Shown here piece by piece: positions 48,187-48,821 of a stretch of 64,000 nucleotides of DNA. Under the pieces are notes generated by a model. The model did no database searches. It saw only the letters and a list, made by a program, of their open reading frames with translations, and was not told the origin of the DNA. Made by a program: the position numbers and the translations under genes. How positions within the stretch are numbered: the first letter of the stretch is position 1; each line of letters opens with the position of its first letter. The stretch comes from Escherichia coli (lineage in GTDB: Bacteria; Pseudomonadota; Gammaproteobacteria; Enterobacterales; Enterobacteriaceae), in assembly GCF_011045215.1 (NCBI RefSeq), contig NZ_CP049201.1, one strand, 5' to 3'.

Positions 48187-48821
48187 AAATGCCTCTTCAT
48201 ACGTTCTCCAATCCCTCGTAATACTGTCAATCCAGATATTTTATACTGCTCAATATTCAATCGGCTTCAGGAATACCTGGTCAAAGGTTTTGTGATGGAC
48301 GATGAGCAGCTGAAGAATCCGCCTGTCGGTTCTTCTGTCCTCGAACGCATCCGCGATATTCGCGCCAGTATGCGCCGTGTTTATTTGCAGGTGATTTGCC
48401 CCCTGCTGGCTCTCAGCCAACTGTATCGCCATTAAGGTGAAGATGTTGTTTTACTCGCCCCAGAACACCCTTTTTTATACGACTATTCTATTTCTTTAAC
48501 CGCTGGCGAAAAAAACTGACTATAAACTTCGCCAATAATCAGACTGCCATCAAGATTAATTTGTTCATTTAATATATCAAATCAACTTGTTTTATTTTTA
48601 CTATCAAAAATAGCTCATTGCCTTACCATAATTAATATATAAATTCGGTGATTAATTCTTAACATGCTTTTGCTAATAATCTCAATTGCTGGCCCTATAA
48701 TATTGCGCTAGCATTGCTTTCTGGTTGTATCAGCGATACTCAAAAATTCTTAATACAATGCTCATTCGACTGGTACTTATTTGTAACTCAGTTATATTTT
48801 GTCGCCCGGTGATTCAGAAGA

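Follow-up and report, generated by a model that had tools for sequence, protein, structure and literature searches.

The 64,000-nucleotide stretch of Escherichia coli DNA analysed here (the window) crosses the right boundary of an island integrated at the tRNA-Sec gene selC and continues into the chromosome beyond it (Table 1). Positions 1-48186 are the right-hand part, at least 48 kb, of this island. Its end is attR, the only copy of the selC 3' end within the window and the exact point at which homology to K-12 begins; ARAGORN predicts no complete tRNA anywhere in the stretch. Past attR, in the chromosome, a short flank that is also conserved in K-12 and further E. coli strains is followed by the fragment of a rhuM gene that is the subject of this report, and then by intact setC. 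The island as such (1-48186) is found in no complete E. coli genome, the best match reaching about 91% identity at 78% coverage. In addition to the cargo listed in Table 1, it carries a YeeU/CbtA-type TA region and, on the minus strand, a two-partner-secretion locus (13568-25096) with a 3078-aa exoprotein and a ShlB/FhaC-type transporter at 23357-25096. The exoprotein combines an ESPR signal, a TPS domain, haemagglutinin repeats and a PT-VENN pre-toxin domain and is hence CdiA-like; going by this domain content, 13568-25096 has the appearance of a contact-dependent inhibition locus carried by the selC island. Towards the other end of the window, past setC, yicL, nlpA and yicS, collinearity with the PapM-32-1 annotation identifies 52000-64000 as an ETT2-associated locus, which encodes a SycD-like chaperone, SipB-like and SipD/IpaD-like proteins, the HilA-family regulator EilA (57931-59628) and, from 59678 onward on the minus strand, the inverse autotransporter Air/EaeX, whose tandem repeats are about 290 nt long.

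Table 1. Features of the relic locus and cargo of the adjoining island, in window coordinates.
Feature	Position	Strand	Basis or remark
attR, 24-nt copy of the tRNA-Sec (selC) 3' end	48163..48186	+	identical to the K-12 selC 3' end
Chromosomal flank, open in the relic frame, no detectable RhuM similarity	48187..48264	+	
RhuM relic core, about residues 118-171 of intact RhuM	48265..48393	+	tblastn, DNA alignment
AAA (Lys) codon, ancestral state	48283..48285	+	alignment with outgroup rhuM genes
47-codon ORF within the relic, start GTG 48292 or ATG 48295	48292..48435	+	
Junction of 24-nt (8-codon) in-frame deletion, AVPDYFDE codons lost	48337..48338	+	comparison with intact rhuM
Degraded relic tail, ends in TAA 48433-48435	48394..48435	+	DNA alignments, Pfam, tblastn
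C5 run in the relic tail	48399-48403	+	C6 in K-12, shifting the frame
setC, intact downstream gene	48822..50006	+	context and selection control
Tn5-like transposase	1497-2912		island cargo
SF1 helicase with DUF2726	4349-7030	minus	island cargo
T6SS ImpA/VasL-like protein	7657-8874	minus	island cargo
NERD+UvrD helicase	9300-11126	minus	island cargo
DUF3987 protein	32517-34142	minus	island cargo
Alpha/beta hydrolase	34559-35557	minus	island cargo
DUF4942 protein	47185-48027		island cargo

The fragment lies within a long open frame. No stop interrupts the frame through 48187 between 48133 and the TAA at 48433-48435; its 100 sense codons take in the final 30 nt of the island as well as attR, and the peptide quoted from it in the sequence-only reading (...LQEYLVKGFVMDDEQLKNPPVGSSVLERIRDIRASMRRVYLQ...) is found exactly in its translation. 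The first in-frame starts are GTG 48292 and ATG 48295, with no earlier ATG, GTG or TTG; the description of 48187-48433 as an open frame lacking a plausible start at its head is therefore correct. An open run of 100 codons in at least one frame is attained by 12% of shuffles of 48001-48820. Thus, the length of the frame is within chance, and its significance must rest on homology.

Homology to RhuM is clear. The frame translation matches the Pfam family PF13310 (Virulence_RhuM) with 48.0 bits (E=1.3e-12), the curated gathering cut-off being 33.7 bits. Full-length RhuM queries taken from a plasmid tblastn, one of Enterobacter hormaechei (342 aa) and one of Klebsiella aerogenes (345 aa), align by tblastn against 48000-48900 at 48265-48393 with 75-76% identity (E=2e-20) and one 8-codon gap, the aligned parts being residues 118-168 and 121-171, respectively. 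When the whole window is searched, 48265-48429 is the sole RhuM-like locus (residues 121-182, E=1.7e-17). At the DNA level, the relic core matches the intact rhuM of E. coli SK1144 with 93% identity over 75 nt and 84% over 56 nt, and the relic as a whole aligns with this gene at about 76% identity in 154 columns. Moreover, the rhuM pseudogene that PGAP annotates in strain PapM-32-1 maps exactly onto 48265..48393. Profile match, tblastn against intact RhuM and RefSeq pseudogene annotation all agree that this is a gene remnant, and the resemblance to RhuM-type proteins, which the sequence-only reading had mentioned as faint and unverified, is confirmed by the first two and by the PGAP label "RhuM family protein". 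An NCBIfam search of the relic gave no meaningful match; a word-indexed protein search returned short fragments of the same relic and no full-length relatives, PDB holds no sequence relative of RhuM, and a literature search on RhuM, Bro-N and Fic yielded nothing informative. In the loci of the two query proteins (E. hormaechei, 1-3623; K. aerogenes, 1130-2678), the intact rhuM immediately follows a symE toxin gene; that of E. hormaechei also has Drt3b and a HicB antitoxin as neighbours, a setting that resembles a defence island.

What is preserved is a piece from the middle of the gene. The PF13310 match covers profile positions 50-108 of 252 (23%) and ends at residue 80 of the 82 translated, whereas the intact RhuM proteins of SK1144 and G3/10 match profile positions 1-250, and in intact RhuM the domain spans residues 70-323 of 345. 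Past 48393, a 9-10-nt deletion, a change in the length of a C run and a 6-nt insertion accumulate and similarity wanes. Neither the 5' 345 nt of rhuM nor its 3' half shows significant similarity to the DNA around the relic, and 48187-48264, aligned locally with rhuM nt 1-345, does not outscore shuffled sequence (z -0.3 to 1.3). A candidate extension, in which 48427-48446 resembles rhuM nt 679-698 (17 of 19 positions) and which would carry the relic to about 48467, was rejected as not significant (z at most 1.9). The relic has no start before parent residue ~127. By these alignments it is an internal 15-20% or so of rhuM, roughly 55-65 of about 345 codons, with both ends missing; of the family domain it has lost the N-terminal region and the C-terminal two-thirds. 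The sequence-only reading had proposed a 3' remnant, which does not agree with a fragment that spans residues ~118-182 of 345 and has lost both ends. As the locus combines a family profile match with an incomplete domain and no intact collinear ORF, we class it, on its sequence, as a derivative of the RhuM family and not as a functional member.

The same relic is present in K-12. From 48163 on, the window is collinear with K-12 MG1655, in which the interval between selC and setC holds the pseudogene yicT (b4653, 3836425-3836556), beginning at an ATG equivalent to 48295. The two loci share the order selC, relic, setC, yicL, the 24-nt internal deletion and the flanks, and they differ in that K-12 has TAA where the window has AAA (Lys) and C6 where the window has C5; in addition, the window has Gln for Arg and Arg for His. 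Because the window keeps the Lys codon and C5, its frame is uninterrupted up to a stop other than that of K-12. Overall, the window and K-12-type genomes are 96.3% identical over 294 nt. The relic is the same entity as yicT and so an already known pseudogene. The sequence-only reading had held that identity with non-coding K-12 DNA would speak against a gene remnant, an objection that does not apply, given that its K-12 counterpart carries a pseudogene annotation. A literature search on yicT retrieved only unrelated text. PGAP labels the locus "rhuM: RhuM family protein" as a pseudogene in thousands of genomes, with the remarks "incomplete; missing N-terminus and C-terminus", "internal stop" or "frameshifted". 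Among 5426 complete E. coli genomes, 3677 contain 48187-48480 and about a third are without it. The window haplotype is rare: at least 99% identity over the 294 nt is reached in 5 genomes and 100% in one.

Comparison of haplotypes reveals a locus in continuing decay. The 24-nt deletion is common to all seven aligned E. coli haplotypes, indicating that the truncation is old; the junction left by this deletion was looked for in species-representative genomes by an exact and a codon-degenerate scan, neither of which gave a match. Polarised by outgroup rhuM genes, the AAA at 48283-48285 is ancestral, and the TAA found in K-12 and the other A/B1-like haplotypes sampled, KY203 and 2015C-4498, is derived. 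Identity to the window over 48250-48305 is limited to 207 of 3565 genomes, and the others differ at one position or more; the uninterrupted frame is thus a minority haplotype. The relic of W46 is frameshifted by a 1-nt deletion, the C5 and C6 runs of the window and K-12 lead to different C-termini, and in 19KM1863 IS1 and IS2 stand in place of the relic. In the 129-nt relic core, pN is 0.03-0.06 and pS 0-0.07, values based on 3-8 substitutions, whereas setC, compared between the window and K-12, yields pS=0.050 and pN=0.0033 (pN/pS=0.07), a contrast of about ten-fold that rests on small substitution counts. Hence no purifying selection is seen on the relic, with few substitutions to judge by, and disabling mutations are polymorphic, as in a pseudogene. 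On the side of RNA and regulation, an Rfam search of the relic region gave one sub-threshold chance match, a promoter and terminator scan gave nothing above expectation (one weak promoter match on the other strand, 3.3 being expected), and 48163-48300 is predicted to fold no more stably than its shuffles (z=+0.99). Neither an antisense ORF of 60 aa (48250-48432, minus strand) nor two further small overlapping ORFs match any Pfam family, and all three were set aside as chance ORFs.

Could the frame be explained without a decayed gene, or by a more recent event? An open frame of this length without genic ancestry is compatible with the shuffles, yet it is refuted by the PF13310 and tblastn E-values and by 93% DNA identity over 75 nt, which leave it a negligible probability. 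The sequence-only reading suggested disruption at the selC site, and it is true that the relic adjoins attR and that the frame is open across it. Nevertheless, breakage by integration of the present island is refuted as well and can hardly be credited. attR is the right boundary of the island, and the relic core begins 78 nt past it, on the chromosomal side. Integration at a tRNA site duplicates the att core and leaves a flank 78 nt away uncut. Relics with the same internal deletions lie beside an unoccupied selC in K-12, PapM-32-1, DETEC-S586 and 2015C-4498; in PapM-32-1, whose backbone shares 99.24% identity with the window across 15.8 kb, the relic is 100% identical and directly follows an intact, unoccupied selC. 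Since the relic is present in strains with an empty selC and lies outside attR, the present island did not break it, and from this comparison of strains we conclude that the relic predates, and is independent of, the island now at selC. The earlier reading of 48187-48433 is in this way partly supported: a RhuM-type remnant is there, with another extent and another history than those proposed.

Two further possibilities would give the locus a present function. In one of them, the 47-codon ORF, which roughly has the K-12 yicT coordinates and which some pipelines call a "cytoplasmic protein", encodes a real small protein that keeps the most conserved motif of RhuM. It does have start codons, with AAGG 8 nt upstream of ATG 48295, and products of 46-49 aa are repeatedly predicted here by gene callers (e.g. 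P0017, and P0038, a 186-member cluster). However, pN about equals pS in the relic, the C-terminus varies with C5 or C6 and is frameshifted in W46, and in many genomes the locus is missing or replaced by IS elements; moreover, the ORF amounts to 23% of the PF13310 profile and no convincing promoter precedes it. A functional small protein is very unlikely on these grounds, and we judge the ORF to be non-functional. The other possibility is that the DNA is kept for a role in cis, either in the regulation of setC, 386 nt downstream of the relic, or as a patch of homology that recombines with the rhuM of islands and thereby affects their gain, loss or fixation at selC, an idea to which strain G3/10 lends some substance, as its intact rhuM and its relic form direct repeats about 200 nt apart that flank attR. 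Against it stand the lack of any Rfam match, RNA structure signal or promoter enrichment, the intact setC of strains that are without the relic, and the fact that the recombinant junction was never observed, so that we give a role in cis equally little chance.

We therefore prefer the reading in which 48265 to about 48430 is a relic of a RhuM gene, non-functional, drifting neutrally and at the same locus as yicT, and we hold it with high confidence. The long open frame would then be explained by retention of the ancestral Lys codon, in whose place most E. coli probably have TAA, together with an upstream flank and attR that are stop-free by chance. The relic has neither a native start nor a native stop; it would do nothing and drift neutrally. 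As to its origin, an older element at selC may have carried rhuM as its last gene beside attR and may later have been almost wholly deleted. We infer such an older rhuM-bearing, selC-associated element with a confidence only somewhat above even.

Islands of other strains illustrate how this could have come about. In some E. coli, full-length rhuM is detected at selC by a "distant" DNA search that took an intact copy of the gene as query. The selC island of G3/10 ends in the order DUF4942, intact rhuM, a conserved end of about 110 nt, attR, relic and setC; the island of the window has the same end sequence without rhuM, passing from the DUF4942 gene straight to the island end. In SK1144 (locus 5829-8080), selC is followed by an intact 345-aa rhuM and by the 110-nt island end with a degenerate attR bearing a 4-nt deletion; the next 13 nt, and less strictly about 40 nt, match the window flank after attR. 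This short flank, which resembles 48187-48225, leads into a second rhuM relic (7239-7405 of the SK1144 locus) that corresponds to residues ~167-237 in three frames (E=2e-11), and beyond it lie the gene for a hypothetical protein of 165 aa, which matches nothing in Pfam, and then yicL, setC being absent. In both strains rhuM is thus cargo of an island that uses the selC att site, and these layouts, taken with that of the window, imply that rhuM is an optional terminal cargo of islands at this site. The intact genes of G3/10 and SK1144 belong to the same family as the relic and have the same orientation to selC; they differ from it in being 345-aa ORFs enclosed by the boundary of the island or islet, whereas the relic lies outside attR. 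They probably show the form that the parent of the relic had. In Salmonella, rhuM, namesake of the RhuM family, is carried by SPI-3, an island at tRNA-selC (PMC3680342); like the relic it is selC-associated, which, by analogy, fits a long association of RhuM with the selC hotspot.

The debris beyond the att site is not uniform. As far as sequence comparison tells, the chromosomal flank of selC carries rhuM debris that has been eroded differently in different lineages. The relics of the K-12 type and the SK1144 type share only codons ~174-190, so little overlap that a common ancestral gene of both is unproven. When 48436-48821 was aligned locally, on both strands, with the island end and attR joined, scores did not exceed those of shuffles (z=0.4 and -0.1); this lack of a degenerate attR or island end downstream of the relic counts against the older-island origin. 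A more far-reaching scheme, in which selC islands with rhuM as the gene nearest attR turn over serially and leave beyond attB rhuM relics (~118-182 in K-12 and the window, ~167-237 in SK1144) that act as recombining patches, is one that we consider unlikely. If it were true, recombination between such relics and island-borne rhuM could stabilise or truncate new islands. In the G3/10 locus (5056-7389), the island rhuM (5977-7014) and the relic (7228-7389) are the direct repeats that flank attR, between which homologous recombination might take place across the att site. As for the att site itself, the two copies of the repeat that flank the rhuM islet of SK1144 (5900-5933 and 7123-7153, equivalent to 48163-48199 of the window) are both followed by at least 10-13 shared nt (AAATGCCTCTTCA), and the recombination core or a conserved flank in this island family may reach beyond the selC 3' end.

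A question remains, what does the relic tell about E. coli? In itself it is of little weight, being an annotated pseudogene in the reference strain of the species and in thousands of RefSeq genomes. It does indicate that the chromosomal side of selC already carried debris of a RhuM element before the present island arrived. The differences that have accumulated in this debris, namely TAA or AAA, C5 or C6, the frameshift of W46 and replacement by IS elements, can serve as neutral markers for haplotypes of the selC flank and for the turnover of the islands at this site.
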